From IMG/VR virus record IMGVR_UViG_3300045413_000158, positions 1 to 36,245 of that record: DNA of 36,245 bases. One strand, 5' to 3'. Positions 4,139-36,245 of the stretch are shown here, in pieces (the stretch's first letter is position 1; the number at the start of each line of letters is the position of its first letter). This DNA is from a virus. The notes under the pieces are model-generated. The model ran no database searches, had not been told where the DNA came from, and saw nothing but the letters and a program-made list of their open reading frames with translations. A program made the translations under genes and the position numbers.

Positions 4139-6214
4139 ATGTCTCTCGTTAGCCAAGCAATTACTATACGAAAAGATACCACACCGAAGAAAAAAGGTGG
4201 GTTAGAGAAATTTGCAGATACCATATCTGCTCCATTTGAAGCAGCAAGTAATCTTCTTGTAAAACCGGTTGTTGAGACATTTGCAAAACCATTTGGTGAA
4301 ACTATTGCTTCATCATATGAACTTGCAGGACGACAAGCTCCAGCATGGACACGAAGTAATCGTCTTTCTTCTCCAGAAATTCTTGCACTTGATCGTGTAG
4401 GGCTTAAGGGGCTTACTTCGAAAAAAGGAATTGCACAGGTACGCAATACTGCACAAGCCATGAAGAATCAGGGATATAAAGGAGCTGGTGCAACTGATAT
4501 TCTTAATGTTCTCTCACTTCTTCCTGGTGGGGCTTTTGCAAAAGGTGGACAAGCGATTGCTCGTGGTGCAGAAGTCGCAAGTGGTGCAGAACGATTTTTG
4601 CCAACGCTTGGGCGTACTTTCAAAGAAACTGTACCCGCTGCTGCTGGTTGGGGAACTGCGTATGGCGCAGCCGAAGCATACGACCAAGATGGATCAGCGA
4701 GGGATATCGCTACAGGTGCTTTGAAAGGTGGTCTTGTCGGTACAGCACTTGGTCTTGGACTTGGTACAGCATCAGCAATAGGAGGTGCTGGACTTCGGGC
4801 ACTTTCAAAGGCAACAAATAAGAGTGTTGCAGAAGAATCTGCTGTACGAAATAATCTTCGAAATTTGAATCAACTTGAAGATAATAATACACCACTCAAG
4901 AAACTTACATCGAAATACATGAGTCAGGGCATCGATGTGAAAGATATGGTATCAAAATCTGATTATCTTAAAGGAGCAGTAGATTCTAATGGTGTGATTC
5001 ATACCCTTCAAGAAGGAGGTGCTCTTTCTCAAGTAGATGATTATATTAAGCCATACGAAAGCGTCGTGAGTGATCTTTTAAAACGTGAAGGTAATACGAT
5101 TGGATTAGATACAGTTGAAGCATCAATGCGTTCAAAAATTGATTCAAGTGGCCTTGAAGGTGAAGCACTTGATGCTGCACATCGAAAGGTCAGTGCAGAA
5201 ATCAGCGGTCTTATACGACGTGCAGATAAGAGCGGCCGTATTCCTGTTGCACTTCTTCAGGATGCGAAGGTAAATAAGTACTCAACAATCAATTATCTTG
5301 ATCCTGCATCAAAAAAAGCAGATAAGACGATTGCACGGACATATCGTGATCTTATCGCGAAAAATACAACTTCTGCTGATGTTAATGCAGTAAATAAAGA
5401 ACTTCAGAAATACTATGCAGTAAAAGCATTTCTTGAGAAACTCGATGGAAGGAAAGTACAAGGAGGAAGACTTGGGAAGTATTTTGCACAAACCGTTGGA
5501 TCAATAGCCGGATCTCACTTTGGCCCGATTGGCTCCATTCTCGGTGCAGAACTTGGTGGCCGTATTCGTGGAATGGGATTAACTTCGACGTTTAATAAAG
5601 GACTCGGAAGAGGACTTACAGAATCCGATATCCTCATGGAAGCAAAAGCGCTCAGTAAAACTCCGCGTCCTCTTGTTCCTGAACATCTCCGGCTTCCAGC
5701 ACCAGATATTTCAAAATCTGGTCCAGTAATTCCACTTCGGGGGCCAACAACGTATGAGTCACGTGCTCCGATTGTTGGTGGTGAAGGACAAAATTTAAAG
5801 ACAGCAGAAAAAATATTAACACAACCTTCCGGTGTAATAGAGGGGAAACTTAAAACTCTACAAGATTTTTCTGATGAGATAAATTCTCGTGTTGATAAAT
5901 TCAGGAAAGAAGCGGGTATTATAGCGAACCGTGAAGGTGCTGGTGTGCGATTACGAAGTGTTGAAGATGGTGCTGGTAATATAAATTTTGTTACAAAAGG
6001 TTTCAATCTGAATCGTGCAAAAGCAAACATGAAAGCACAAGCAGATAGCGCAAAAAAATATGCTAAAACTCTATTATACGATAGTGATGAAGAGTTTAGA
6101 TCCCTTGTAGATTTTTATGATGCTCTTTTAGAAGAAGAAGCAAAAAAAGCAGATACAATACAAAGCATTGATAAAGTACTTCAAAAAATCAACGAAGAAA
6201 TAGACCTCTTCTAA
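4139..6214 (+). CDS. Large virion-associated protein (putative internal/ejection protein)
   Basis: 691 aa. It has Gly-rich hydrophobic segments (GGLVGTALGLGLGTASAIGGAG; VGSIAGSHFGPIGSILGAELGG). Its position after the hydrolase-bearing internal protein mirrors the T7-type layout. The function is inferred from position only. Confidence 0.45.
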   Translation: MSLVSQAITIRKDTTPKKKGGLEKFADTISAPFEAASNLLVKPVVETFAKPFGETIASSYELAGRQAPAWTRSNRLSSPEILALDRVGLKGLTSKKGIAQVRNTAQAMKNQGYKGAGATDILNVLSLLPGGAFAKGGQAIARGAEVASGAERFLPTLGRTFKETVPAAAGWGTAYGAAEAYDQDGSARDIATGALKGGLVGTALGLGLGTASAIGGAGLRALSKATNKSVAEESAVRNNLRNLNQLEDNNTPLKKLTSKYMSQGIDVKDMVSKSDYLKGAVDSNGVIHTLQEGGALSQVDDYIKPYESVVSDLLKREGNTIGLDTVEASMRSKIDSSGLEGEALDAAHRKVSAEISGLIRRADKSGRIPVALLQDAKVNKYSTINYLDPASKKADKTIARTYRDLIAKNTTSADVNAVNKELQKYYAVKAFLEKLDGRKVQGGRLGKYFAQTVGSIAGSHFGPIGSILGAELGGRIRGMGLTSTFNKGLGRGLTESDILMEAKALSKTPRPLVPEHLRLPAPDISKSGPVIPLRGPTTYESRAPIVGGEGQNLKTAEKILTQPSGVIEGKLKTLQDFSDEINSRVDKFRKEAGIIANREGAGVRLRSVEDGAGNINFVTKGFNLNRAKANMKAQADSAKKYAKTLLYDSDEEFRSLVDFYDALLEEEAKKADTIQSIDKVLQKINEEIDLF

Positions 6215-10684: not shown

Positions 10685-11259
10685 ATCAAAATATTCGTTC
10701 TGCTGGATGGTTCCATAATATCGAATCAACATATTATGACGCATGGTATATTGGAGGTATTCTAACTCAACCATATGGAGGAGGAGTACTCGGAAGTAAC
10801 TCCCCGTCTCCAAATATTTTGTATGCGGTTCCCTATCTTACCGGACACGGTGGGGTTGTTGATGACATTCGTTATGAAGTAACCGCGACGGGAGGTGTCG
10901 GTCGCTGTGGGATTTATACTTCAACAAGTCATTATAATCCGTACCCAGATCAACTTCTTCTTGATAGCGGTGAAAATGTTCATTCAACAACAGGAATAAA
11001 AAGTACAACAACATCGACGAGACTTCCTGAAAATTCTTTAGTCTGGTTTGTATATTTACAAAGTTTAACAAGCAATGTTCGGGCTATTTCAGCAGGATCA
11101 GGCTGGTTCTTTTTAGGTTCAGACAGCTCTATGTCTACATCGATCCGTGGTCGAATAACAATTTCTTATTCATACGGGAGTCTTCCAGCGACTTTTCCTG
11201 CCGGAGGATCAACTACTTCAACAATTGCCCCAGCAATAGGTGTACATTATTCTTCCTAA
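10672..11259 (+). CDS. Tandem paralogue 3 of 3 (195 aa)
   Basis: TAATATG junction. It starts MLNN and shares RCGIYT, YGSLPATFPAG and the ending HYSS*. Confidence 0.7.
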   Translation: MLNNDQNIRSAGWFHNIESTYYDAWYIGGILTQPYGGGVLGSNSPSPNILYAVPYLTGHGGVVDDIRYEVTATGGVGRCGIYTSTSHYNPYPDQLLLDSGENVHSTTGIKSTTTSTRLPENSLVWFVYLQSLTSNVRAISAGSGWFFLGSDSSMSTSIRGRITISYSYGSLPATFPAGGSTTSTIAPAIGVHYSS

Positions 11260-11260
11260 T

Positions 11261-11563
11261 ATGAAATATAAAATCACATACGATCTTTTGACGAATGAGC
11301 TCCTCTTCGTTGAGCCGGTAACAACGGGCATTGTTGAAGTAGAAGATGATCCCATCGCAGAGAAATGGCTCTCAGAAGGATGTCGTGCACACCTCATTGA
11401 TGGTGTTCTTGTTGAAAATACCGAACCTATCTGTATCGAACGGAATATCTGTCCCGATAAAGACATTGCCGAAATTGTAAACATCCCTTCAAATGTTGGG
11501 ATGAAAGAGGCAGAATATGAACATGTCCTGAATGATGCCTTCAATATTTTGATGAGTGAATAA
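11261..11563 (+). CDS. Hypothetical protein (100 aa)
   Basis: The start is taken at the TAATATG junction (ATG 11261). The ORF-track start at 11240 lies inside the upstream gene. Confidence 0.6.
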   Translation: MKYKITYDLLTNELLFVEPVTTGIVEVEDDPIAEKWLSEGCRAHLIDGVLVENTEPICIERNICPDKDIAEIVNIPSNVGMKEAEYEHVLNDAFNILMSE

Positions 11564-13015: not shown

Positions 13016-13222
13016 ATGTCAGCAGAAGGAATTGGCAAGAAATGGTACATGTCACGGGGTGTATGGATCGCTGTGCTCACTTTTCTTATTGGTGCATCGG
13101 ACGTCATCATTGAATTGATCCGTTCTGAGGACTACTCAGCAATGGGAATTGCAATGGCGGTTGCCGGAATCCTCAAGTTTGCAGAACGGATGACATCAAA
13201 TGGTGAGCCAGTGAATCTCTAA
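13016..13222 (+). CDS. Holin-like small membrane protein
   Basis: 68 aa with two hydrophobic helices (VWIAVLTFLIGASDVIIELI; MGIAMAVAGILKFA). It lies immediately after the endolysin and is the last gene before the terminator. Confidence 0.55.
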   Translation: MSAEGIGKKWYMSRGVWIAVLTFLIGASDVIIELIRSEDYSAMGIAMAVAGILKFAERMTSNGEPVNL

Positions 13223-13252
13223 AAAAAAGAAGCCGTAATGGCTTCTTTTTTT
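13221..13252 (+). terminator. Intrinsic terminator ending the late/lysis operon (A-tract, hairpin, T-tract; potentially bidirectional)
   Basis: aaaaaaaa GAAGCC gtaat GGCTTC ttttttt. The stem is 13229-13234/13240-13245 and the T-run 13246-13252. Confidence 0.8.
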
Positions 13253-13290
13253 ATAAAAAAATAGTGCGCGGTTTCACCTAACCACCGCGC
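13253..13290 (-). terminator. Intrinsic terminator ending the - strand early operon
   Basis: On the - strand: GCGCGGU-ggttaggtgaa-ACCGCGC followed by ACUAUUUUUUU. The stem is 13266-13272/13284-13290. Confidence 0.7.
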
Positions 13291-13301
13291 GAAGGTTTCG
13301 T

Positions 13302-13505
13302 TCACAACATAGAATTAAAGACTATGAACTCTTTTCTTTCAAAATAGTGTGAAATTACACCATTAAATTCATGCCCTTCTCCTTGTTGTTTTTTATGGAG
13401 TGTATGGATGAAAGACTCTACCTTTGTTTCTGAAGGGAATCGAACATTCCAGCCACAGATATGACATGTCACACGTATAACCTGAACCAGATCATCGTTG
13501 TGCAT
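13302..13505 (-). CDS. Small protein with a CxxC motif (67 aa)
   Basis: The start is taken at the internal ATG (MHNDDLVQVIRVTCHICGWN...). The longer track ORF (to 13640) overlaps the upstream zinc-ribbon gene in another frame. Confidence 0.5.
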   Translation of the reverse strand: MHNDDLVQVIRVTCHICGWNVRFPSETKVESFIHTLHKKQQGEGHEFNGVISHYFERKEFIVFNSML

Positions 13506-13719
13506 ACTTATAATGAATAACAGGAAGTCCGTTATCGAGTGCCTCATTGAATACTCTTTTTGAGATATCCTTGAAACATCGGACAGTGGAACCATCATTA
13601 CAAACATGACAACGGGTGAGGTAGACGATACGACCATCATCTGTCAGAAGGACAAGACGAATAGTAAGCACGGTGCTGCAATCAGGACATGAGATGCAAG
13701 AAATTGTATCCCAGATCAT
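13492..13719 (-). CDS. Zinc-ribbon protein (75 aa)
   Basis: MIWDTISCISCPDC...TRCHVCNDG has two CxxC pairs. Its ATG overlaps the stop of the upstream micro-ORF (ATGA). The track start at 13854 is a TTG. Confidence 0.55.
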   Translation of the reverse strand: MIWDTISCISCPDCSTVLTIRLVLLTDDGRIVYLTRCHVCNDGSTVRCFKDISKRVFNEALDNGLPVIHYKYAQR

Positions 13720-13838
13720 TGTTGCACACGGCGGTCGTAGAGACAGGCGTGAAGGATCAGAAGCGGCAGAATGCACGCAAACAAGATACTTGGCTTCTCT
13801 ATTGCAGCCCACATGATCCACGAATGAAAGAACGACAT
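13716..13838 (-). CDS. Micro-ORF, 40 aa, hydrophobic (MSFFHSWIMWAAIEKPSILFACILPLLILHACLYDRRVQQ)
   Basis: Hand-translated. It is preceded by GGAGGAatcactATG, one of the very few strong Shine-Dalgarno sequences in the genome. It is coupled to the next gene by an ATGA overlap. Confidence 0.45.
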   Translation of the reverse strand: MSFFHSWIMWAAIEKPSILFACILPLLILHACLYDRRVQQ

Positions 13839-13951
13839 AGTGATTCCTCCACAACTGCTCACATTCTTTGGGAGAATATCATCTCAAAAGGAGGATAATG
13901 AGATAATACACGGCCGAAGCCAGGAACATCAGCATGTGAGGAGGAATCACT
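13839..13951 (-). promoter_or_regulatory. Structured intergenic RNA that can sequester the Shine-Dalgarno sequence of the 13838 micro-ORF
   Basis: A perfect 12-bp inverted repeat (13839-13850 / 13940-13951) pairs AGUGAUUCCUCC with GGAGGAAUCACU on the - strand. The enclosed region has an 11-bp hairpin with CCUCC in its loop and a GGC-UUCG-GCC hairpin. Confidence 0.5.
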
Positions 13952-13968
13952 GAGAGTATATCACGTTT

Positions 13969-14304
13969 TTATACTGTATTTTTTGCCTCTTCCAAGAAAT
14001 ACTTTTGAGCGGCTTTGAGAGAACGGATCAATTCCTCGATTGCTTTAATTCGTCCGGTGAGTTTAATGACTCGTTTTCCTTCATCGCTTCCACGAACAAG
14101 CTGCTTTGCTTTTGCTGATGTTACTGTTTCATCTTTGAGAAGCTCACACTCCATCTTTGCGGTGTCCGCCAGCGCATCACATAATTCTACGGAATATTGT
14201 GCAAATATACTTGTGAGAAATGAATAGTAATGGACCACATTTGCTGGAGTAAGACTATCCGGTCGCTTCATGTGATCGATGATCCCTTCGATTGTAAATT
14301 CCAT
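13969..14304 (-). CDS. Hypothetical helical protein (111 aa; alternative start at 14271)
   Basis: ORF from the track. The ATG at 14271 forms an ATGA overlap with the upstream stop and would give 100 aa. Confidence 0.6.
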   Translation of the reverse strand: MEFTIEGIIDHMKRPDSLTPANVVHYYSFLTSIFAQYSVELCDALADTAKMECELLKDETVTSAKAKQLVRGSDEGKRVIKLTGRIKAIEELIRSLKAAQKYFLEEAKNTV

Positions 14305-14501
14305 AGATGTTGGATTTTGAGGAAAAATGTATTTGATCGCTCAGTTCTTTCGTGGCATGTCCGACAAAGATCAACAAGTACAGATGGATCATTTTTGCGT
14401 TCCGGAGATGTGCTTCTTCGTTCAGTATGGTGTCGATCAATCATTTCTACTGTTGATGGTTTACCACACCAAAAGCAAGAACGGGATTGATCGAATAGCA
14501 T
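14268..14501 (-). CDS. Small HNH-type endonuclease-like protein (77 aa)
   Basis: CFWCGKP...DRHHTERRS...LCRTCHERTE fits the CxxC...HH...CxxCH layout of HNH nucleases. Confidence 0.6.
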   Translation of the reverse strand: MLFDQSRSCFWCGKPSTVEMIDRHHTERRSTSPERKNDPSVLVDLCRTCHERTERSNTFFLKIQHLWNLQSKGSSIT

Positions 14502-14503
14502 AT

Positions 14504-15025
14504 TTATCCTGCCGCGATTAACCTCGCGACTTCTTTGATTTTACTTTCGGTTCCTTGTAATGCGTGTATGTCCACTGAATTGTATGAAGTGGCATCGTTG
14601 TACTTCCTCCGATCCATGACGAATGGTAAACATCCTTCTCCCTTTCCGTCTGAATAATCCACTCCTGTATATTCCACTTGTTTTCCATCGGAATTTCTGG
14701 AAAGTGGCAATGGATTAGTGCGTTCCAGGGAAGCAATGAATGCGTCTTGAGTAATAAGCTCGTCAGTTTTTCCGCATCCTTCTTCATCAAGGTCGCGAAG
14801 TGATAATCCTGTTGTGTTGTCTTCTCCTTCATTCCCTTCCATCGATTCTCGCATATCTGCGCCCAGTACAGCATCTTCTTTTTCAATCGATGAATACGGA
14901 ACATTACAAATAATCCATACATATTCCTTGAAGTTAATGCGCTTTTCTTCTCGAAGAGGCTTGTATTTTGCAACCCGTTCGTCGTAGGACATTGCTTTCA
15001 GTTGTTCAAGCTCTTCTAACGTCAT
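14504..15025 (-). CDS. Hypothetical acidic protein (173 aa)
   Basis: The start is taken at MTLEELEQL (ATG 15025), 4 nt after the upstream stop. The track start at 15064 overlaps the upstream gene. Confidence 0.6.
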   Translation of the reverse strand: MTLEELEQLKAMSYDERVAKYKPLREEKRINFKEYVWIICNVPYSSIEKEDAVLGADMRESMEGNEGEDNTTGLSLRDLDEEGCGKTDELITQDAFIASLERTNPLPLSRNSDGKQVEYTGVDYSDGKGEGCLPFVMDRRKYNDATSYNSVDIHALQGTESKIKEVARLIAAG

Positions 15026-15029
15026 AAGA

Positions 15030-15215
15030 CTATTTGTTTGATTCTTTTCCCTTTCGTATTGCATCAGACCATGCTTTCTTTTCCTCGTCGGTTTTCTTCG
15101 CCCAGCGATACTTATTTCGCTGCGTTGCCATGACGCTCCGTGCGATGCTCAATACTTCTTCTTCAGAGGCAATATGTTTCTTCCCATTTTCGTCGATCCA
15201 AATCTTCTTTTCCAT
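15030..15215 (-). CDS. Hypothetical basic protein (61 aa)
   Basis: ORF from the track with an ATG start, packed within the operon. Confidence 0.55.
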   Translation of the reverse strand: MEKKIWIDENGKKHIASEEEVLSIARSVMATQRNKYRWAKKTDEEKKAWSDAIRKGKESNK

Positions 15216-15256
15216 ACCTGCATTATATCATGCCATTAGTGAAACTATGTGAATAA

Positions 15257-15427
15257 CTATTCTATCATTAATAGTACTGCAATGGCTAAATCGAAAGCAC
15301 CCATAAAAATTCCAATAATTGATAACGGAACATTTATTTCTCCTCCCTTTTTTACTCCACCAGAAGACGCAATAAAGAGTATCAATATACCTTGGAGAAA
15401 CATTATGAGAGCTAATATATATTTCAT
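15257..15427 (-). CDS. Micro-ORF, 56 aa, two-helix membrane protein (MKYILALIMFLQGILILFIASSGG...IIGIFMGAFDLAIAVLLMIE)
   Basis: Hand-translated with an ATG start. It forms a clean transmembrane hairpin. I prefer it to the overlapping TTG-started 67-aa track ORF 15228..15431. Confidence 0.45.
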   Translation of the reverse strand: MKYILALIMFLQGILILFIASSGGVKKGGEINVPLSIIGIFMGAFDLAIAVLLMIE

Positions 15428-15454
15428 ACAAGGACTTTTTGAGATTCTTTCATA

Positions 15455-15562
15455 TTATTTCTTCTCTTCACATTCAGGACATAACCCTTTGAATGGTTCG
15501 TATGGATGTGTCTTGATCCAAAGGAAGATCTCGCCGCATTGTTCGCAGTACATGTGTGGCAT
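15455..15562 (-). CDS. Micro-ORF, 35 aa, zinc ribbon (MPHMYCEQCGEIFLWIKTHPYEPFKGLCPECEEKK)
   Basis: Hand-translated. It has two CxxC pairs, with AAGGA 7 nt upstream of the ATG. It fills the gap after the 15582 gene. Confidence 0.5.
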   Translation of the reverse strand: MPHMYCEQCGEIFLWIKTHPYEPFKGLCPECEEKK

Positions 15563-15581
15563 ATTTCATCCTTACGAATCT

Positions 15582-15959
15582 TCACGGCCGAACCCACAGC
15601 ACATTATCTGCTTTTGTTTTATTACACTCGTGACAACATGTGACAAGGTTTCTTTTGTCATTTGTTCCACCTTTTGAGACCGGAATAATGTGATCGATTG
15701 TGAGATTCATTTTCTCCACCACCTTCAGTGCACGACGGAGAGTATCGGAGAAGACAGGGTAATTGTTATGAAGGGCGACGATATAATTTGCATCCTCAAT
15801 TTCGCATGCTGGCCATTCAGTGCCAGATGCAACACCAGGGGCTATATCCACTAAAGAAGGATATGCATCACTCCATGGCTCAGAGATATTCCACTCACCC
15901 TGTGTCGCTTTTTCGCGTAGTTCATCCAACACGTCGAGTATTTTTAGGATGTCTTGCAT
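15582..15959 (-). CDS. Ead/Ea22-like N-terminal region fused to an HNH nuclease motif
   Basis: 125 aa. ...EKATQGEW...EIEDANYIVALHNNYPVFSDTLRRAL resembles the Ea22-like pattern. The C-terminus IDHIIPVSKGGTNDKRNLVTCCHECNKTK is a classic HNH core. Confidence 0.55.
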   Translation of the reverse strand: MQDILKILDVLDELREKATQGEWNISEPWSDAYPSLVDIAPGVASGTEWPACEIEDANYIVALHNNYPVFSDTLRRALKVVEKMNLTIDHIIPVSKGGTNDKRNLVTCCHECNKTKADNVLWVRP

Positions 15960-16324
15960 AGGGTAATGAGGTTATGTTCGAGGAGATGAATGAGTGCTTT
16001 TGCACGAGCATCCGCTTCGGTATCAGAAAGGAATACTGTTGCATCAATATCTTTATTCCATTCCGTTACCCATTGATCCGGAATATAGCCTATTGTAGGA
16101 GCGTATTCGCTTTTTACCTTTTTCATCATTTCTCCTAATTCTGCGACAGTGAAGGCTGAATACGCATCTGGATTTCCATTCTTCTTGAGTTTCTTTACTT
16201 TAAAACGCATTTCGTCTACGTCTGACATTATTCCTTCCCACATGAAATAGCTTTTTTGTTCAACCCCGAGTTCTTTCAACCTCTTCGCATGTTCGAGCGA
16301 GCAAATATGTTTTTTTATTTGCAT
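15944..16324 (-). CDS. Hypothetical protein (126 aa), distant paralogue of 16519..17019
   Basis: Shared pattern by eye: HAKRLKELGV / TAVKLKEAGW near the N-terminus and a helical ...A.A.l.l.e.NL C-terminus. Confidence 0.6.
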   Translation of the reverse strand: MQIKKHICSLEHAKRLKELGVEQKSYFMWEGIMSDVDEMRFKVKKLKKNGNPDAYSAFTVAELGEMMKKVKSEYAPTIGYIPDQWVTEWNKDIDATVFLSDTEADARAKALIHLLEHNLITLCKTS

Positions 16325-16342
16325 AGGACCTTTTTCATAAAG

Positions 16343-16522
16343 TTATTTTTTACAAAAGAATTTATGTTCTACGCTACGTCTCAAAATGAGACCACCCATT
16401 TCTTTCTCGATGTATATTGCTCCTCCGCAACAAAATAATATTTCCTTACTTAATATGCCAGTCTTAAGCGTTATTGGCACAATAGCCTCCCGTACGGCGG
16501 CGAGGGTGTCGATGGGGGTCAT
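16343..16522 (-). CDS. Micro-ORF, 59 aa (MTPIDTLAAVREAIVPITLKTGILSKEILFCCGGAIYIEKEMGGLILRRSVEHKFFCKK)
   Basis: Hand-translated. Its ATG overlaps the upstream stop (ATGA at 16519-16522). It is one residue below the ORF-track cut-off. Confidence 0.5.
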   Translation of the reverse strand: MTPIDTLAAVREAIVPITLKTGILSKEILFCCGGAIYIEKEMGGLILRRSVEHKFFCKK

Positions 16523-17019
16523 AAAAGATTTTGTTCTTTAGCCCATAGCCATGCAGACGCACATGCTTCGCTGAATTCCGTACCGAACATGCTACCAATT
16601 GTTTCTGGTGTGTTTAACGCCGAGTGTTTGTATGTAATACAAGAGTCAATGAGAGAACTTGTTCCATTATCCCCGAAGTAGAATGTCCAGAAACATCCGC
16701 TATCGTTCCATGTGATTGCACATTCGTTTGTGATGTCGAGTTCTTTGAGGATTTCTTGTGCATCTGGTGCCTTCAAAGCTTCTTTTACTGTCCATGTATT
16801 AGGGAATAATGGCATGTTTGAAAGGAAATTTATTTCACGCAAAGATTCTACAGGAATCAATTTCCACCCTATTACGAATATTCCAAATGGCTGATTGTGT
16901 ATCTTTCTACCTGTTTCATCGTGAATGAGTATATATTCACGTTCCGTCTCAGATTCCCATCCCGCCTCCTTCAACTTCACCGCTGTTTCGTGTGAGATGC
17001 ATTTCGATGATGAGGTCAT
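16519..17019 (-). CDS. Hypothetical protein (166 aa)
   Basis: The start is taken at MTSSSKC (ATG 17019), 2 nt after the stop of the upstream micro-ORF. The track start is 17058. Confidence 0.6.
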   Translation of the reverse strand: MTSSSKCISHETAVKLKEAGWESETEREYILIHDETGRKIHNQPFGIFVIGWKLIPVESLREINFLSNMPLFPNTWTVKEALKAPDAQEILKELDITNECAITWNDSGCFWTFYFGDNGTSSLIDSCITYKHSALNTPETIGSMFGTEFSEACASAWLWAKEQNLL

Positions 17020-17021
17020 AT

Positions 17022-17177
17022 TCAGTTCTTCCATAACAGTGCGAGTGCAACTGACCATCCACAGAATGCGAAGAAGTTTCCGTCAATTATTGCTAGTAAG
17101 ATACCTGCTTGGGTGAGTATGAAGAGAACTTTTTTAGCTGTTTTGTTATTTTTTGTGCGTGTCTCTATATTCAGCAT
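17022..17177 (-). CDS. Micro-ORF, 51 aa, membrane protein (MLNIETRTKNNKTAKKVLFILTQAGILLAIIDGNFFAFCGWSVALALLWKN)
   Basis: Hand-translated. It has a basic N-terminus followed by hydrophobic helices. Its stop abuts the next start (TGAATATG). Confidence 0.45.
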   Translation of the reverse strand: MLNIETRTKNNKTAKKVLFILTQAGILLAIIDGNFFAFCGWSVALALLWKN

Positions 17178-17273
17178 AATCAATGTTTATTTTTCCATCG
17201 TCGGTGTTGTCATAGGTTTTTATATATAGTGCACTGACGAAGAAACACCGGTTTGTTTGTGATTGTACTTGGA

Positions 17274-17459
17274 TTAAAGATAGATTCTGTGTGATTGTGT
17301 GTACTTGCAAACCTTACACTCACGGCATTCCTGTATATACGTTTTTATTGGGAGCGTTGTTGAAGCACTAGAATCAAATATTTTGTTCAAGAACGGTACT
17401 CCATCTGTATTTTTTACTGTCTTCCATTTACTCCAATCGTGAAAGATGTGGAATTTCAT
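17274..17459 (-). CDS. Hypothetical protein (61 aa) with a C-terminal CxxCxxC motif
   Basis: ORF from the track, with the motif ECRECKVCKY. Confidence 0.55.
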   Translation of the reverse strand: MKFHIFHDWSKWKTVKNTDGVPFLNKIFDSSASTTLPIKTYIQECRECKVCKYTQSHRIYL

Positions 17460-17462
17460 AGA

Positions 17463-18110
17463 TCAAAACGGTATTTCTTCGAGTGGTATAGTCTCTGTAG
17501 CCTCTTGTGGTGTGCTCGGCGGTACGAATCGTTCACCGGCCTTGTATTTGTTTCCACATACTCCCGAACAATTCATCGCATTCGGGAATTTCGCGTCTAC
17601 TGCGAACGTTTTATTGCACACAGCACAATTCTTCGTATTTTGCTTTTGCGACGATCCTGAGGCATTTGGTGTGGTCTGGGAGGCCTTCGGTGCGACTTCG
17701 TGTGTCTGCGTCTCGGTATCTTTCTCGTCTTCTGTTGGGATACAGAATAGTTGCATCATGGCGTACTTGTACGCTGCGCTCATTGCCTTGTTGCTACCCT
17801 TATCTCCACTGTCCATAGCTTCACCGATGGTAACGAGGCGTACATTCGTCCCATCCGAGGCATAAACGGTAAATTCTACATTGAGGATAGTGTAGAGAAG
17901 TAATCCGCCCTTTGTGCTCGTTCGCTCCTCACGTTTCTCAGAGAGAACAACTGGACAAAAGAACACTCCATACCTCGAAAGAATAGGATTGAGTGCGTTG
18001 TACACGTCGTCGATCCCACGGAACTTATAATTTTGTAGATCGTTCTTACGATCCTTTGAGATAGGCTCAATCTCCTCCATGACTTTCTGAATGCTTTGGT
18101 AGATGTTCAT
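17463..18110 (-). CDS. erf: ERF-family single-strand annealing recombinase
   Basis: 215 aa from MNIYQSIQKVMEEI. NYKFRGIDDVYNALNPIL, GEAMDSGDKGSNKAMSAAYKYAMMQLFCIPT match the ERF signature. The start is taken 1 nt after the upstream stop. Confidence 0.75.
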   Translation of the reverse strand: MNIYQSIQKVMEEIEPISKDRKNDLQNYKFRGIDDVYNALNPILSRYGVFFCPVVLSEKREERTSTKGGLLLYTILNVEFTVYASDGTNVRLVTIGEAMDSGDKGSNKAMSAAYKYAMMQLFCIPTEDEKDTETQTHEVAPKASQTTPNASGSSQKQNTKNCAVCNKTFAVDAKFPNAMNCSGVCGNKYKAGERFVPPSTPQEATETIPLEEIPF

Positions 18111-18111
18111 A

Positions 18112-18273
18112 CTACATGCTTGCTTTAAGGCCGATAAATAAGAGTGCAGTACCAATCACGAACATTCCGAGGATCACGAACCACACGCCTTTCTCGATGC
18201 GCCACTGTCGATGTTCACGCTTCACGGCACGAATGCCTGGAAGTGCCCAGTTGCTGTATTGAGGCTTGTACAT
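18112..18273 (-). CDS. Small membrane protein (53 aa)
   Basis: The start is taken at the ATG of the TAATAATATG junction (18273). It has one transmembrane helix (VWFVILGMFVIGTALLFIGL). The track start is a TTG. Confidence 0.5.
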   Translation of the reverse strand: MYKPQYSNWALPGIRAVKREHRQWRIEKGVWFVILGMFVIGTALLFIGLKASM

Positions 18274-18277
18274 ATTA

Positions 18278-18409
18278 TTAGCAATTATTACATCGACGCG
18301 GGATTCCAACGTCTTTTACTTCGTCCCCACACTCGAAACAGCAACAGTTGCATTCGGTATCACACGCTTTACTAGTGATGGCATGTGCGGTATCGGTTCG
18401 ATCGGACAT
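18278..18409 (-). CDS. Micro-ORF, 43 aa, cysteine-rich (9 Cys: ...KACDTECNCCCFECGDEVKDVGIPRRCNNC)
   Basis: Hand-translated. It starts 1 nt after the upstream stop (TAGTATG) and ends in the TAATAATATG junction. Confidence 0.45.
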   Translation of the reverse strand: MSDRTDTAHAITSKACDTECNCCCFECGDEVKDVGIPRRCNNC

Positions 18410-18410
18410 A

Positions 18411-18590
18411 CTAGAAATCAGTTACTTCTCGTGTATCTGCGGTGAGTGCCTTTGCGTCTGCTGCAAGTGCCATATCAAGGTCAGCGAGTACATAACGGAA
18501 GGGTGCCGCGGTCGCACGGTCGAATGCACCTTGGAGTTGATTGATTGCACATTCCATGTTCTTGAGTGCCATTGTCTGGTCGTATGTCAT
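18411..18590 (-). CDS. Micro-ORF, 59 aa, Ala-rich helical protein (MTYDQTMALKNMECAINQLQGAFDRATAAPFRYVLADLDMALAADAKALTADTREVTDF)
   Basis: Hand-translated. Its ATG overlaps the upstream stop (ATGA at 18587-18590). Confidence 0.5.
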   Translation of the reverse strand: MTYDQTMALKNMECAINQLQGAFDRATAAPFRYVLADLDMALAADAKALTADTREVTDF

Positions 18591-18847
18591 AGCGATGGGT
18601 TAATTTCTGGCTCTTGGTATCCGTGTTCTTTTACCTTTGCACGTCCCCATTCTTGGATGCGTTCAAATTCTCTGGCATTACTCATGGCAAGATCATATTT
18701 CAGTTTAATCACTCGCTGAATAATGTCAGATGCCTGTTGCTTTGAAAGGTGTGTCTCGATCCATTTTGTGCAGTGCTCTTGATTCTTCTCTTTCGTATAC
18801 AATTTCTTGCCAATCACTTCTGCTTGTTTTGCGGTGCATGGTTCCAT
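18587..18847 (-). CDS. Hypothetical protein (86 aa)
   Basis: ORF from the track with an ATG start. It is the first gene after the internal promoter/hairpin. Confidence 0.6.
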   Translation of the reverse strand: MEPCTAKQAEVIGKKLYTKEKNQEHCTKWIETHLSKQQASDIIQRVIKLKYDLAMSNAREFERIQEWGRAKVKEHGYQEPEINPSL

Positions 18848-18867
18848 AGAATGACATTAGGAACGAG

Positions 18868-18915
18868 AAGCCACAGAGCATCAGACAGTCGAGACCATGT
18901 GATGTTCTGTGGCTT
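18868..18915 (-). promoter_or_regulatory. Long 5' UTR hairpin (16-bp stem, 16-nt loop), 21 nt upstream of the 18847 start
   Basis: aagccacagagcatca / tgatgttctgtggctt are complementary apart from one G:U position. Confidence 0.5.
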
Positions 18916-18947
18916 TTGAAGGTGGAGGCTCTCGCCATCACGAAGGT

Positions 18948-18975
18948 ATCATACCACGCCATTAGTGAAAGGCAA
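18948..18975 (-). promoter_or_regulatory. Candidate sigma70-type promoter (TTGCCT-16 bp-TGgTATGAT) inside the early block
   Basis: On the - strand the -35 is 18975-18970 and the extended -10 is TGgTATGAT, with its hexamer at 18953-18948. It lies just downstream of the terminator at 19018-19046. Confidence 0.4.
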
Positions 18976-19017
18976 GTTTATGTTGTGTATATCTCATAAA
19001 TAGCCTGATAGAAGTGA

Positions 19018-19046
19018 TAAAAACACAAAACCACAGTTTCCCGTGG
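19018..19046 (-). terminator. Intrinsic terminator after the first early gene
   Basis: On the - strand: CCACGG-GAAA-CUGUGG (GNRA loop, one G:U pair) followed by UUUUGUGUUUUU. Confidence 0.65.
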
Positions 19047-19072
19047 CGTGTGTGTACCGACCATTGTTTTCT

Positions 19073-19384
19073 TTAGAGTGTTTTGATCAGAGTATCCATC
19101 GCCTCGATGAAGTCAGACACCTTGTCAAGCTTCATGAGTTTCTTGTCTTGGAGCGCCTTGATAATCTCGAAAGCTTGCTTCCCCTTATCTTGTGCTCGTT
19201 CCTGGAGATAAACGGGATACGATTCTTTAATGACGGTCGGGTAGTACCAGTTCGACCAGCAATCCCAAGTCGTCGACGGCCAGTACCCAAAGTTTGCACT
19301 ACCTGACGTTATTGTTCCTGTCTGAGGGAGAACAGTATTGCCCGTAACAAACGCATCCATGAGTGCCTGTGAGTGTGAATCCAT
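19073..19384 (-). CDS. First early-block protein, function unknown (103 aa; the track ORF extends to a GTG at 19450)
   Basis: The first ATG gives MDSHSQALMDAF.... The N-terminal half is Trp/Tyr-rich and the C-terminus helical (AFEIIKALQDKKLMKLDKVSDFIEAMDTLIKTL). Confidence 0.55.
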   Translation of the reverse strand: MDSHSQALMDAFVTGNTVLPQTGTITSGSANFGYWPSTTWDCWSNWYYPTVIKESYPVYLQERAQDKGKQAFEIIKALQDKKLMKLDKVSDFIEAMDTLIKTL

Positions 19385-19450
19385 AGATAGTGCGTGGGCG
19401 GGATAAGCGACCACGGAATAGTTAGGATCGGTACTCCTCCATAGTAACAC

Positions 19451-20117
19451 AATACCGCCCCGGAGGAGAGCGGTATGTGTGGTAACGCGGATAGTTTGTC
19501 CCTAATTTCGACGAGGCGTTCTGTGAGCGAACAATGATGGGTGTAACTTGGGGCCGCGTTTCACGCGTAAGGTAACGCGGCTATCCTGCGAAGCTAGCAA
19601 TAGGAGTTCAATTCTTCGGTTCGCACCGAACTGGAATTTCTCCCATAGGAACATCACCATTGTACTATTGTGGATTTTCTACTGAACCGTGGAAGGTGTT
19701 GATAAATGAACTAAAACACCCCCTATGCCTTTCGGATAAGAGGTGTTATAGTCTTTATCGTTGGAAATAAAGGATGAGTAAAGTATTTCATTACTTGTCA
19801 TCCTTGTCAACCGACAGGGATATTTTTATCCCGAATCTCTGACGGGAAGGTCGGGTGAACCGATAGAGCCTCCGTTGGCTGCCAAGTTAAATCTATCGGA
19901 TTGATGTTTGTGATGTCCACGGCAGCATCCGTGGTGGACTCAAAGCTTCAATCTCATATTACGTCAACCGTACCAACGTAATATGTTATAGCCAATCTCC
20001 ACCGAGGTGGGGCGAGGACAGGGAAACGGTGCAGGGGATCGAAGGTTTCTTCTCCCTGAAAGAGCTGGCTCACCAGACGGGCTTTTGTTCTTCTTTTGGA
20101 TCTAAAGCTTCAAGGCT
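19451..20117 (-). ncRNA. Candidate large structured RNA, or an unusually long structured 5' leader, transcribed from the - strand
   Basis: 667 nt have stops in all six frames, and the sampled GC is about 55-57%. At least 12 local hairpins are present. Five of them gain G:U pairs and/or GNRA loops (GAAA, GAAA, GCGA) only when read on the - strand. The class is unknown. Confidence 0.4.
19782..19810 (-). promoter_or_regulatory. Candidate - strand promoter inside the structured region (TTGACA-17 bp-AATACT)
   Basis: A perfect -35 (TTGACA) lies at 19810-19805 and a 4/6 -10 at 19787-19782. The -35 overlaps a TGACAAG-ga-TGACAAG direct repeat. Confidence 0.3.
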
Positions 20118-20600
20118 ATGAAAAAGAAATTGACTCAGGAATATCTTAGCTATATTCAATCATCTGATTGGTTTAAAAAAGCTCAAAGAATTAGAGATAG
20201 AGACGTAGTGTGTCAAGGTTGCGGGTCGGAAAAGAATTTGGATGTGCACCATAAAACGTATAAACGCTTTAAGCACGAAAGTGATGAAGATTTAATATTA
20301 ATATGCAGACAATGCCATGAACAGATCCATAAAAAGAAAAAGAAATCGAATCTTGATAAAGTAACTAATAAGCTAATTAAAATGACACAAAATAGAGCGA
20401 TGAGATTTGATAAGCTTGATGAAAAGTGTAGAAAGTGCGGCGGTATTCTAATTATGAGACAAGCAAAACTCACTGAGAAACGGTTAAAACGCGCATATCA
20501 TTTTTGTCATTTTAAGCAATGCTTGTCATGTTCTGCATTTTTTATGCTCGAGGAATTTAAGACATATCCAAATGAAAGTTGTAATTGTGAGCGTGTATAA
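20118..20600 (+). CDS. Free-standing HNH endonuclease with a C-terminal zinc ribbon
   Basis: 160 aa. SSDWFKKAQRIRDRDVVCQGCGSEKNLDVHHKTYKRF...DLILICRQCHEQIH is the common phage HNH pattern, and a second CxxC...CxxC lies at the C-terminus. The gene is markedly AT-rich (first 60 nt are 27% GC) relative to its GC-rich flanks. Confidence 0.8.
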   Translation: MKKKLTQEYLSYIQSSDWFKKAQRIRDRDVVCQGCGSEKNLDVHHKTYKRFKHESDEDLILICRQCHEQIHKKKKKSNLDKVTNKLIKMTQNRAMRFDKLDEKCRKCGGILIMRQAKLTEKRLKRAYHFCHFKQCLSCSAFFMLEEFKTYPNESCNCERV

Positions 20601-20738
20601 GGGTTGGGAAAGAGCCGTCTCAAAAAAGAGAGCGGTAGTTTAGCTATACATGTCAGCTTCATGCCTGTGAGTAACTCTATGCACATGGGTGTATAATGTT
20701 TTTTGTCACAAGGTTGCGATTACCCCCGCAACGTGTAG

Positions 20739-20806
20739 AAAACTCTTTTTCCCTGGTGCCTGATCCGCAAGGATTCGGGGGGTACGCCAGGGGAGAAGAG
20801 TTTTTT
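20739..20806 (+). terminator. Long terminator/attenuator hairpin immediately upstream of the replication gene
   Basis: The 18-bp basal stem aaaactctttttccctgg / ccaggggagaagagtttt has two G:U pairs that are valid only on the + strand. The upper stem is tipped by a GCAA tetraloop (20767-20770). A T6 run follows at 20801-20806, and the ATG at 20835 is 28 nt downstream. Confidence 0.6.
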
Positions 20807-20834
20807 ACATCCTCATTGGGGCGAAGAAGTTTAT

Positions 20835-21575
20835 ATGGATACAGGATGGATCAAGATTCATCGAAAGCTGCTAGATAATCCCACGGTTATGAAAGACGCC
20901 GACCATTTCGCGATATGGGTTTGGCTTCTTTTGAAGGCAACGCATGAGGGCATCGACGTAATCTTCGGAGGAGAAAGAATTACCCTATCACCTGGACAAT
21001 TTACTACCGGAAGAAAGGTTATCTCTAATGCTTTGGGCGTTTCTGAAAGTAAAGTGCAACGTGTTTTATCTTGCTTCGAAAGTGAACATCAGATTGAACA
21101 ACGAACAGATAGACAATGTAGGCTAATAACAGTACTAAAATGGTCTGAGTATCAAAAACGTGAACAACGAAATGAACATCAAATGAACAACGATCGAACA
21201 ACGAGTGAACAACGAGTGAACACTAAACAAGAATGTAAGAATGAAAGAATGAAAGAAACTGAGAGTGAGGCGACTACGTCGCTCGCTCCCATAAAAACAA
21301 AAAAGACTCCATCACAGATTGCTCATACATTCTTCGAAGATGGCGCGGATCATACCCAGACGATTGAGTACCTCGTTGGAAAGGGCGTACCAGAAGAAGT
21401 AGCAAAACAAGAGATGGCAAAGTTTATCTCTTACTGGACTGAGCCAAATAAAAGCGGGACGAAGGTGAGGTGGCAGGGAGAAACACACTTTGATCTCAAA
21501 AGGAGAATGGTGACATGGTTCAGCCGCATCCGAGGATATAGTGAAAATAAAGAATCTAAAGGAATCAAACTATGA
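20835..21575 (+). CDS. Replication initiation / replisome-organiser-like protein (winged-helix N-terminus, Phg_2220_C-like C-terminus)
   Basis: 246 aa. GWIKIHRKLLDNP...HFAIWVWLLLKA...TGRKVISNALGVSESKVQRVL is an N-terminal DNA-binding fold typical of phage replication organisers. The C-terminus has F..YW....K.G...RWQ....FDLKRR...W. An iteron array lies in the central linker. Confidence 0.6.
   Translation: MDTGWIKIHRKLLDNPTVMKDADHFAIWVWLLLKATHEGIDVIFGGERITLSPGQFTTGRKVISNALGVSESKVQRVLSCFESEHQIEQRTDRQCRLITVLKWSEYQKREQRNEHQMNNDRTTSEQRVNTKQECKNERMKETESEATTSLAPIKTKKTPSQIAHTFFEDGADHTQTIEYLVGKGVPEEVAKQEMAKFISYWTEPNKSGTKVRWQGETHFDLKRRMVTWFSRIRGYSENKESKGIKL
21083..21226 (+). repeat. Iteron array (putative origin of replication) inside the replication gene
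   Basis: TGAACAACGA or close variants occur at 21083 (variant), 21095, 21161, 21173 (variant), 21184, 21195, 21206 and 21217 (variant). The last six are spaced 11-12 bp apart. An AAGAATG x3 A-rich tract follows at 21229-21255. Confidence 0.65.
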
Positions 21576-24199: not shown

Positions 24200-24322
24200 A
24201 TGAAGACAGTCGCATCCCTCATTGAGGATTTACAGAAGCTCCCACCAGATTCCGAAATTACTTTTCAAGTCACGATCGCAGTAAAAGAGAATCAGAATAC
24301 AGAAGAAGCTCCCGTGGAATAA
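24200..24322 (+). CDS. Micro-ORF, 40 aa, acidic (MKTVASLIEDLQKLPPDSEITFQVTIAVKENQNTEEAPVE)
   Basis: Hand-translated. It starts 2 nt after the upstream stop (TAATTATG). Confidence 0.45.
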   Translation: MKTVASLIEDLQKLPPDSEITFQVTIAVKENQNTEEAPVE

Positions 24323-24336
24323 CCATGGGATAATGT

Positions 24337-24657
24337 ATGTGGAGCATCAGGAGAAAAAAAGATCTAAACGCAATCCACATACCAGGACGACGTTCGAGTA
24401 GGGATTTTGTCGAACATGCGTTGTGGGAGTACGATATGCTCAACGTACTTCACAAGAAAGTAGCGGTGTATTGTCCTCTCTGCTTTTGTTGGTATATTCC
24501 CGAAGGATATGAGCGTACATGCTCGAATGCTCAATGTGATAATTTTGAACGAGATGTCGAATTTGTTTATCCGAAGTATCATGAAGAAGAAAATCTCCGC
24601 CTTGTGCGATATGAGATGTATCGCCTCCCACCGGAGAAATATAAAAAGAAATACTAA
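24337..24657 (+). CDS. Cys-rich hypothetical protein (106 aa)
   Basis: ORF from the track. CPLCFC...CSNAQC suggests metal binding. Confidence 0.55.
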   Translation: MWSIRRKKDLNAIHIPGRRSSRDFVEHALWEYDMLNVLHKKVAVYCPLCFCWYIPEGYERTCSNAQCDNFERDVEFVYPKYHEEENLRLVRYEMYRLPPEKYKKKY

Positions 24658-29783: not shown

Positions 29784-30098
29784 ATGGACTTTCAAGCACT
29801 CCGAGAGAAAAATCCACACCTTTCAAAACGGATTGACGCATGGGAGAAAACCGTGCGTCTCTCGGAGATTGCTTTGGAGACACAAAATAATCCAATCATT
29901 GAGGAAATATTGCGAGGACTCCACGAAAGTATTGAGTTTATCAATTCTAAACTCATCACTGATGAAAAAATGACACAAGAAGAACGACTTATTTTCTTTG
30001 CACGACGTGAATGCTATCAGTGGGTCATGGATAAATTCACTGGTACGATTGAAGCAGGGAAATCTTTAGAAAAGAATCTTAGAAGGAAATATGAATAA
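29784..30098 (+). CDS. Hypothetical head-module protein (104 aa)
   Basis: ORF from the track with a TAGTATG junction. Confidence 0.55.
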   Translation: MDFQALREKNPHLSKRIDAWEKTVRLSEIALETQNNPIIEEILRGLHESIEFINSKLITDEKMTQEERLIFFARRECYQWVMDKFTGTIEAGKSLEKNLRRKYE

Positions 30099-30714: not shown

Positions 30715-31500
30715 ATGCCGGAAGGCGCAGAAGTTCTCGATCAGAACGCAAATGATCCCATTGAAGGAGCACAGCCAGTCATTGAGACTCCGGTTGCTGA
30801 ACCTCCAAAAGAAGAGTCAAAGCAAGAAAAGGTTGATCGTCCTACATGGTCAATGCCCGTTGCAAAGGCTCAAGAAGAAAAGCGCAAGGCGGTCGAAAAG
30901 GCACGTCTTGAGGCTATCGAAGAAAAAGACCGTGAGATTGAGCGCATGCGTGAGGAGTACGAAAAGCGATTGTCTGCAGTCAAGCCTATTGAAAGCGACA
31001 TTGAGCGAATCGCCTCAGAACATGGGCTTGAATCAAAAGCGGTGAATGATCTCTATGAAGTATTTGAAAAACGTGTCGCTGGGAAAATCCCCGACATGAG
31101 CAAATACGATGAGATTGTGAAACAAAAAGAACTCGAAAATCATCGGCTCGCTGTTGAGCGCGAATTTGACGAGAAGGTGGCTCCTTTACTTCTGAAAGAT
31201 TTTCCAGCAGCGACTCCACAACATCTCATTGATGCTCGAAAGAAACTCACTGACCTTGCCTTTACTGATGGGTTTAATACCTATCGCATCGAGGACATCT
31301 ATAAGGTCAATCGTGAAGAATTTGAGTATAAAAATGGGTACTCTGCGGAATCGTCAGGCGGTCGTTCTTCTGAACTCGTTGATTTCGATACGATGACGGA
31401 TGAAGAAGAACATGAACTCGCACAAAAGAATCCTGAAAAATATAAGGAATTCTTAAAATGGCAGGTCTCAACGAAGGGGAGTCTCTATCAAAATATTTAG
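30715..31500 (+). CDS. Scaffolding protein (putative)
   Basis: 261 aa from the first ATG (the track start at 30694 is a GTG). It is highly charged, Glu/Lys-rich and helical, and lies directly upstream of the capsid gene. Confidence 0.55.
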   Translation: MPEGAEVLDQNANDPIEGAQPVIETPVAEPPKEESKQEKVDRPTWSMPVAKAQEEKRKAVEKARLEAIEEKDREIERMREEYEKRLSAVKPIESDIERIASEHGLESKAVNDLYEVFEKRVAGKIPDMSKYDEIVKQKELENHRLAVEREFDEKVAPLLLKDFPAATPQHLIDARKKLTDLAFTDGFNTYRIEDIYKVNREEFEYKNGYSAESSGGRSSELVDFDTMTDEEEHELAQKNPEKYKEFLKWQVSTKGSLYQNI

Positions 31501-35982: not shown

Positions 35983-36245
35983 ATGTCTACGATTACTCTC
36001 CCAAAAATTCTTGCAAATTTCACTACGACGCTCGCGGCGACGATGAGCGCATCGGCGACAACGTTCACGCTGGATCGATCTACTGATCCAGACGGTACAA
36101 CACTTTCTGGGCTGTATGAGCTCACTTTCGACGAAGGAACGAGTTCAGAAGAACACATGTACGCCACGATGAGCGGGGCATCGGGTACTGTGACTCGTCG
36201 TGGACTTTCAAAGGTAGACGCATGGACGGAAGTTGCTGGGAATAA
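35983..36245 (+). CDS. Tail fibre protein, N-terminal part (continues at base 128 after removing the overlap)
   Basis: The ATG at 35983 gives MSTITLPKILANFTTTLAATMSASATTFTLDRSTDPDGTTLSGLYELTFDEGTSSEEHMYATMSG.... It is open to the window end and in frame with ORF 39..1631. Confidence 0.75.
   Translation, partial: MSTITLPKILANFTTTLAATMSASATTFTLDRSTDPDGTTLSGLYELTFDEGTSSEEHMYATMSGASGTVTRRGLSKVDAWTEVAGN
36119..36245. repeat. Terminal overlap copy B (identical to 1-127)
   Basis: Same exact 127-nt string as at the window start. The overlap lies inside an open reading frame, so it is not an intergenic physical end. Confidence 0.95.

Follow-up and report, generated by a model that had tools for sequence, protein, structure and literature searches.

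A hairpin-dense, lineage-specific non-coding spacer between the divergent gene blocks of a phage with a probable Bacteroidota host

Composition, structure and strand preference of the spacer

We analyzed a stretch of viral DNA of 36,245 nucleotides (nt) (IMG/VR record IMGVR_UViG_3300045413_000158, positions 1 to 36,245; hereafter the window) and focused on a spacer at 19385-20117 that is free of open reading frames (ORFs) and lies between two divergent gene blocks. This spacer is non-coding, exceptionally dense in inverted repeats and lineage-specific. The window is a complete, circularly closed phage assembly (or a terminally redundant genome) of ~36.1 kb, with identical terminal 127 nt (1-127 = 36119-36245), and a Logan contig of 36,148 bp is identical to the window phage; an identical contig also occurs in run SRR35384896. 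The leftward block (13969-19384, minus strand) contains an ERF recombinase gene, two HNH genes and small ORFs, and the rightward block (from 20118, plus strand) contains an HNH gene followed by genes for a DnaD-like helicase loader, a ParB-methylase, terminase, capsid, tail and lysis functions. The prophage relatives of the loader gene come mostly from Bacteroidota metagenome-assembled genomes, and Bacteroidota is the probable host phylum.

The first gene of the leftward block most likely starts at the ATG at 19384, because this start is given by the Logan gene call and by full-length alignment to homologues of 102-105 amino acids (aa), which makes the true spacer 733 nt long (19385-20117). 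An initial annotation made from the sequence had reported an ORF-free segment of 667 nt at 19451-20117; the segment is indeed non-coding, but it falls short of the full spacer. It contains no ORF of at least 60 aa, and TAA, TAG and TGA are mixed in every frame, in agreement with the six-frame stops noted initially. Recoding of a stop codon was rejected, since all three stop types are present in all six frames, and a hidden gene was rejected, since the six-frame translations were unmatched in the fetched loci described below and in the remaining genome. The segment had also been described as GC-richer than its surroundings, which we found to be a real but mild effect (47.4% versus 42.7% for the genome, within the top ~6% of 667-nt windows); the 57% counted by eye for 19981-20040 was measured as 56.7%.

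All 13 local helices listed in the initial annotation fold as drawn. Perfect inverted repeats with a stem of at least 6 bp numbered 16, compared with 3.9±1.9 in 300 dinucleotide shuffles (maximum 9) and 5.4±2.5 (maximum 12) in 93 other windows of the genome, and for stems of at least 8 bp the count was 4 observed versus 0.2. The excess was concentrated in 19701-20000, and the repeats were mostly different in sequence from each other. With a fold z score of ~-5, the 667-nt segment was the most stable such stretch of the genome, non-overlapping background windows having a mean of ~-0.8 and a minimum of -3.6. In fold scans with 100-150-nt windows, 19676-20000 alone was exceptional, and 19401-19650 and 20001-20150 folded no better than shuffles (150-nt scan).

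The segment had been proposed to fold only on the minus strand. For the segment as a whole this proved incorrect, the minimum free energy being -235.7 on the plus strand versus -209.1 on the minus strand, with z scores of -5.0 (plus) versus -5.0/-4.3 (minus). The individual strand-asymmetric hairpins were nevertheless real: 19715-19747 folds at -17.5 kcal/mol on the minus strand versus -8.8 kcal/mol on the plus strand, and 19452-19476 and 19958-19982 likewise favor the minus strand. Left of ~19760, four of five hairpins favored the minus strand, and right of it eight of nine favored the plus strand. To correct the strand bias for composition, we folded both strands of every shuffle. For the left ~390 nt (19385-19775), the z score was -3.55 on the minus strand (-4.23 with 100 shuffles) versus -1.34 on the plus strand; the energy difference between the strands lay 2.4 standard deviations (SD) from expectation (z_diff -2.4), and a difference as extreme occurred in 1 of 120 shuffles. 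This bias was mostly due to hairpin A (19697-19757; z_diff -3.1). The right half (19776-20117) had no preference for the minus strand (z -2.4 on the plus and -1.8 on the minus strand). The strand preference of the two halves thus matches the direction of the flanking genes, as divergent transcription from the centre would predict. Of the earlier suggestion that the segment is an RNA transcribed toward the early operon, perhaps as a long leader, a reduced form is supported: the left ~390 nt, biased to the minus strand beyond composition, would fit a long leader, and the support does not extend to the right half.

The local elements are collected in Table 1. On the minus strand, hairpin A is a long stem with a bulge, a GAAA tetraloop and two or three G:U pairs found on that strand only, and its tail is U-rich (UUUUAGUUCAUUU, also read as UUUUAGUU). 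Hairpin A thus resembles an intrinsic terminator or attenuator, although the automatic terminator scan left it out because of the bulge. Further left, the AACGCGG copies at 19484 and 19574 sit inside GGTAACGCGG, and a hairpin at 19550-19584 is built on AACGCGG copies; the middle copy could pair with either outer copy, or all three could be protein-binding sites. In a post hoc test, 0.2% of 1000 shuffles had interleaved 7-bp repeats of this kind, and none of 171 other genome windows did. An H-type pseudoknot with loops of 1, 3 and 11 nt may be possible at 19434-19476 on the minus strand only, because the loop order would be sterically unfavorable on the plus strand.

In the centre, the structure at 19751-19850 that covers hairpins B, C and D had z scores of -4.1/-3.4. 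Hairpin C (19800-19821) followed by ATTTTTAT is terminator-like on the plus strand and passes the terminator scan. Hairpins B and D together are mutually exclusive with hairpin C, and the two alternatives may constitute an attenuator switch. Extended -10 boxes (TGNTATAAT) occur at chance level genome-wide (40 versus 38.9 expected), and the promoter candidates are matches to the sigma-70 consensus, the probable Bacteroidota host using different promoters. Toward the right end, the hairpins at 19996-20085 were not above chance, the last ~120 nt before the HNH start were unremarkable, and the second copy of the 17-nt repeat ends 4 nt before the HNH ATG.

Table 1. Coordinates of the spacer, its predicted elements and the flanking genes
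Feature	Position	Strand	Basis or detail
First leftward gene (103-aa family)	19073-19384	-	most likely ATG at 19384
Conserved stem-loop in the 5' untranslated region of the 103-aa gene	19381-19425	-	stem 19415-19411/19397-19393, loop UCGCUUAUCCCGC
Whole ORF-free spacer between divergent blocks	19385-20117	both	733 nt, GC 47.7%, inverted-repeat excess
Two interleaved perfect 7-bp inverted repeats	19434-19476	-	19476-70/19458-52 and 19468-62/19440-34; repeat search
Motif AACGCGG, three copies	19481-19583	both	19484 and 19574 direct, 19554 inverted; 3 versus 0.01 expected
tRNA-like stretch (Arg, anticodon GCG)	19556-19627	+	sub-threshold Rfam/ARAGORN match
Stacked hairpins, GAAA and GCGA loops	19600-19646	-	present in centroid structure
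Hairpin A, core 19715-19747	19697-19757	-	-23.6 (-) versus -13.2 (+) kcal/mol, z -3.1
Extended -10-like box TGTTATAGT	19744-19752	+	sequence match
Overlapping hairpins B (19768-19805), C (19798-19823) and D (19815-19834)	19768-19834	+	folds; terminator scan
Leftward sigma-70-like promoter match, TTGACA-17 nt-AATACT with upstream TG	19782-19810	-	10/12 consensus
Hairpin E, 8-bp perfect stem	19858-19901	both	inverted repeat
Hairpin F	19914-19940	both	fold
17-nt direct repeat, 14/17 identical, sharing AAAGCTTCAA	19935-19951 and 20097-20113	both	repeat search
Hairpin G, perfect 10-bp palindrome, arms 19955-64/19976-85	19952-19988	both	abuts second -10-like box
Second -10-like box TGTTATAGC	19984-19992	+	abuts palindrome G
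HNH gene, first of rightward block	20118-20600	+	gene calls
DnaD leader	20690-20812	+	TATAAT 20692-20697, hairpin 20713-20732, A-tract/U-tract hairpin 20738-20806
DnaD-like loader gene	20835-21575	+	~700 nt from spacer

Relatives, conserved neighboring elements and known RNA families

We compared the spacer with 50,697 phage records by blastn and fetched ~90 loci around relatives of the left, DnaD-like and HNH genes from IMG/VR, Logan/JGI/ENA and GTDB genomes, which were searched with nhmmer and blastn and, for the earlier sets, also with tblastn. The spacer had no nucleotide or translated similarity in the 50,697 phage records, the ~90 loci or the IMG/VR pattern scans, and when IMG/VR was scanned for exact patterns taken from hairpin A, from the GGTAACGCGG pair and from the 10-bp palindrome, chance matches alone were returned. 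The phage is isolated, its best protein relatives among 5.8 billion sharing 65-70% identity for the left gene, 68% for the loader and 64% for the HNH protein.

The sole phage found with an orthologue of the HNH gene (L047; 67% nt and 64% aa identity) has a similar layout, with a leftward block, a 494-nt ORF-free spacer and then the HNH gene. Its homology to the window starts no more than ~10 nt upstream of the HNH ATG, and the two spacers are unalignable; the L047 spacer has no significant inverted-repeat excess and no minus-strand bias. The 10-mer GTGTTATAGT (window 19743-19752) is common to both unrelated spacers, which is a mere lead, as the chance expectation for one such shared 10-mer is ~0.7. 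A very stable ~95-nt hairpin followed by TTTTT was observed on the plus strand of L047 at 4612-4706 (z -6.6/-5.8 for 4601-4720), ~18 nt downstream of this 10-mer. Transfer of the HNH gene and spacer as one mobile cassette was rejected, the only HNH relative (64% aa) having an unrelated spacer. In the phages with loader orthologues (L036, L006, L061, L062-65), the divergent spacer measures just 200-290 nt and the HNH gene is missing. In two of them, the gene divergent from the DnaD-like leader encodes a 55-58-aa Lys/Gly-rich protein with a KGG/AGG-type motif (L036 95-259 and L006 3613-3789, both minus strand), and the window has no trace of the KGG-type gene that these relatives carry at the same position.

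Two elements beside the core of the spacer are conserved. One is the stem-loop at 19381-19425, just left of 19451 and so outside the coordinates of the initial annotation. Its motif order is uAAC, a 7-bp covarying stem, a loop close to UCGCUAAUACCGC, UUGAAA and AUG, and it was found in 15 distinct sequences before genes of the 103-aa family, with covariation at 7 of 7 pairs and many G:U pairs. Stem cells were paired in 90.5% of cases, versus 51.7% in shuffles and ~45% in slid controls, and the covariance model built from the motif (R2) matched the window copy with 31.4 bits (E 3.6e-4). A covarying stem-loop with G:U pairs places a functional RNA on the minus strand just upstream of the first gene, and this stem-loop may be a translational operator. 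The 103-aa left neighbor itself had no match in Pfam, PHROG, NCBIfam or PDB.

The other conserved element is the leader of the DnaD-like loader gene, whose long hairpin ends in U6, 28 nt before the loader ATG. This leader (120 nt) is 94% identical in L036, while the loader protein is 68% identical; it is kept in all the loader-orthologue phages named above, down to 49% protein identity, with compensatory changes in 15 of 27 pairs. A covariance model of the leader (R1) recovered it in the relatives with E values of 7e-9 to 2e-24, and a metagenome scan with the leader pattern returned one unrelated AT-rich contig. The leader could be an attenuator, an antitermination target or an origin element. 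A paralogous relationship between the spacer and this leader was rejected, since R1 found nothing in the spacer or in L047. Neither neighboring element matched any Rfam family in the searches made. Both remain recognizable at 49-68% identity of the adjacent proteins, so that a functional non-coding RNA would have been detectable; in contrast to both, the 667-nt segment has no detectable counterpart in the relatives.

No Rfam 15 covariance model matched anywhere in the window at its gathering score, which agrees with the initial statement that the segment could not be assigned by eye to a known class: GOLLD, ROOL, HEARO and group I/II introns were all unmatched on both strands. The GOLLD (RF01998) model, with its conserved 3' domain, had no match at the gathering score in the window and none at E<=10 in 19300-20250, and the same was true of ROOL (RF03087). 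Neither HEARO/omega RNA nor group I/II intron models gave a match, and the flanks are two complete divergent genes instead of one interrupted host gene. At E<=10, four weak matches were obtained in 19300-20250, of which one, the tRNA-like stretch on the plus strand, was below E = 1. It scored 22.8 bits with RF00005 (19556-19625), against a gathering score of 29, and was called by ARAGORN at the most relaxed -ps80 setting only, with an acceptor stem that contains two U·U mismatches; it is probably a chance match or a decayed tRNA. A tRNA array was rejected, ARAGORN finding no tRNA in the window at default settings and two poor candidates at relaxed settings.

Readings of the spacer

At slightly less than an even chance, we read the spacer as a single divergent early control region with a structured leftward leader, outward-facing terminator-like hairpins and operator-like palindromes. 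Transcription would run both ways from start sites near the centre (~19745-19810). Transcripts heading left from the TTGACA-17-AATACT match at 19810-19782 would carry a structured leader of ~390 nt, composed of the promoter-proximal, terminator-like GAAA-capped hairpin (19757-19697), further hairpins, the possible pseudoknot (19476-19434) and the conserved stem-loop next to the start codon (19425-19385). In the other direction, transcripts would run through the B/C/D alternatives (19768-19834), then through palindromes E-G, and on into the HNH gene. All these hairpins would serve as attenuators, 5' stabilizers or operator palindromes that set early expression, and would not form one globular RNA. 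This arrangement is consistent with the divergent layout, the fold z score of ~-5, the 16 repeats versus 3.9 in shuffles and a strand bias that follows the flanking genes, and also with the promoter-like site in the centre, the terminator-like site on the plus strand and the U-rich tail of hairpin A on the minus strand. A precedent lies ~600 nt away in the conserved DnaD leader, with its -10 box, hairpins and covariation, and the proposed leader has a covarying stem-loop on its 3' side.

Several observations weigh against an early control region. The promoter-like matches in the spacer are not enriched over shuffles (6 sigma-70-like sites versus 3.1±1.9 expected), promoters of Bacteroidota, the probable host phylum, differ from the sigma-70 consensus, and the Bacteroidota-type motif TAnnTTTG is absent from the spacer. 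Related phages manage with spacers of 200-290 nt, so that the phage may be able to do without most of the 733 nt. With spacers of 11-24 nt, the perfect Watson-Crick stems suit DNA palindromes as well as RNA hairpins. Finally, the reading draws on sequence and fold predictions for a segment with no homologue in the collections searched.

Two lambda systems offer further comparison. Lambda PR'-tR' (6S RNA) is a promoter-proximal terminator read through by Q. The spacer resembles it, and leader attenuators in general, in that on both strands a stable U-tailed stem-loop is predicted within tens of nt downstream of a candidate promoter (A on the minus and C on the plus strand), and hairpins B/D versus C are mutually exclusive; the conserved DnaD leader nearby has the same layout. 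It differs in that no antiterminator protein was identified in the window genome and the U-tracts are modest, and the start sites and termination are predicted here. Lambda ori is an iteron-type phage origin, and like it the spacer lies near a replication-initiation gene and has some short repeated motifs, but it lacks regularly spaced iterons and an AT-rich region (GC 47%). In place of three or more regular direct repeats with an AT-rich region, we found two-copy repeats and one three-copy motif with one copy inverted.

The main rival is a replication origin of the type of phage c2 (Ceduovirus), in which a non-coding early transcript and/or DNA hairpins would start replication; we regard it as unlikely. 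In c2, a 611-bp ORF-free region between the divergent early and late blocks contains the origin, the early promoters EP1/EP2 (PE1/PE2) lie ~360 nt apart, and the non-coding PE1 transcript is implicated in initiation; c2-type origins replicate plasmids without phage proteins, and Ceduovirus origin types have no sequence similarity to each other and are hypervariable among related phages (PMC7150918). The window has the same architecture, a single ORF-free spacer of 600-730 bp (733 nt here) between divergent blocks, with the DnaD-like loader gene ~700 nt away; transcription from the candidate leftward promoter would yield an untranslated RNA of several hundred nt (~390 nt) before the first early gene, motifs are repeated (AACGCGG three times, AAAGCTTCAA twice), and the orphan status of the spacer suits the known variability of origins. 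The c2 origin region is flanked by the first two early promoters, with a non-coding transcript between them; in the window, one good leftward match lies ~390 nt from the first gene, and a second promoter was not identified. Against an origin of this type, the spacer is by blastn similar to no phage record, c2 included, it has no regular iteron array, and it is missing from relatives that have the same loader gene. In c2 the corresponding region is AT-rich and shows no unusual degree of structure, whereas the window spacer is GC-richer than its genome, without an AT-rich unwinding region, and packed with hairpins; the c2 origin itself was not more structured than shuffles (z -0.8/-0.9), so that hairpin density is not a hallmark of this origin type. 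The window phage also differs from c2 in encoding a DnaD-like loader. A packaging site (cos/pac) was rejected, the terminase genes being 5.7 kb off.

We also think it improbable that the spacer is a largely non-functional, fast-evolving stretch at a mosaic junction, which arrived with the HNH gene or decayed from genes or tRNAs and retains a few working terminators or operators. Such an origin would fit the lack of a homologue in the collections searched, the short spacers without an HNH gene in the closest loader relatives, the L047 orthologue behind an unrelated 494-nt spacer whose repeat count is not significant, the shuffle-like folding of the flanks (19401-19650 and 20001-20150) and the tRNA-like remnant. 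It does not readily account for a repeat density and fold z score that lie well outside the range of shuffles and are unequalled elsewhere in the genome, a strand bias in the left half beyond composition or interleaved 7-bp repeats seen in 0.2% of shuffles, and translated similarity to the fetched loci gave no hint of decayed genes. The structure is also what the initial annotation had relied on in proposing a large ~670-nt RNA comparable to GOLLD or ROOL. One large, independent minus-strand non-coding RNA, an orphan counterpart of these families, would share with them a phage-encoded, ORF-free region of several hundred nt with many helices, and it agrees with the genome's most extreme fold z score (~-5), the GNRA-capped hairpins with minus-strand-specific G:U pairs, the minus-strand bias of the left half and a pseudoknot feasible on that strand only; wobble-type mismatches flanking stems were 7 on the minus versus 2 on the plus strand, which is not significant (P ~0.09). 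We consider such an RNA highly unlikely. Apart from the weak tRNA-like match, no GOLLD, ROOL or other non-coding RNA model matched; the plus strand folds equally well, the right half has no minus-strand preference, and the signal comes from local hairpins with no supported long-range architecture. GOLLD and ROOL usually adjoin tRNA genes or islands in phages and prophages (PMC12286853), whereas ARAGORN found none in the whole window. The region is absent from all relatives, although two small RNA elements nearby are recognizable there, and the large-RNA proposal is further weakened by the homology to L047 stopping ~10 nt upstream of the ATG and by hairpins that are not conserved. A narrower version, in which only the left ~390 nt (19385-19775) would form a lineage-specific structured non-coding RNA directed toward the leftward operon, either as a PE1-like replication primer or activator or as a new regulatory RNA with the GAAA hairpin and pseudoknot, is in our estimation very unlikely.

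If the spacer is a divergent early control region, it would be an ordinary one for a phage, though unusually ornate, and it provides a worked example that dense hairpins and a strong fold z score are not in themselves enough to infer a GOLLD-like RNA. The spacer would gain in importance if the leftward leader primed replication or acted as a regulatory RNA in a phage of the Bacteroidota type: to our knowledge, little is understood of early regulation and origins in such phages, and we know of no such structured non-coding RNA elements described for phages of uncultured, probably Bacteroidota, bacteria. The more solid by-products of the analysis are the stem-loop before the widespread 103-aa family and the terminator-like leader before DnaD-like loader genes.

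Other features of the genome

Three separate HNH-endonuclease genes are present in the 36-kb genome, at 14268-14501 and 15582-15959 on the minus strand and at 20118-20600 on the plus strand. The HNH protein encoded at 20118 has a C-terminal Cys-rich extension and carries the JGI label "terminase large subunit GpA-like." The two gene blocks converge at an ORF-poor stretch of ~750 nt (13223-13968) with doubtful ORFs only, and a very stable local fold is found at this convergence (13101-13250; z -5.4 on the plus and -4.0 on the minus strand in the 150-nt scan); the junction at 13101-13968 probably holds bidirectional terminators. Within coding regions, 150-nt windows with fold z scores of -4.6 to -5.8 (20 shuffles each) were found at 24301-24450 on the minus strand and at 31201-31350, 11201-11350 and 29801-29950 on the plus strand.

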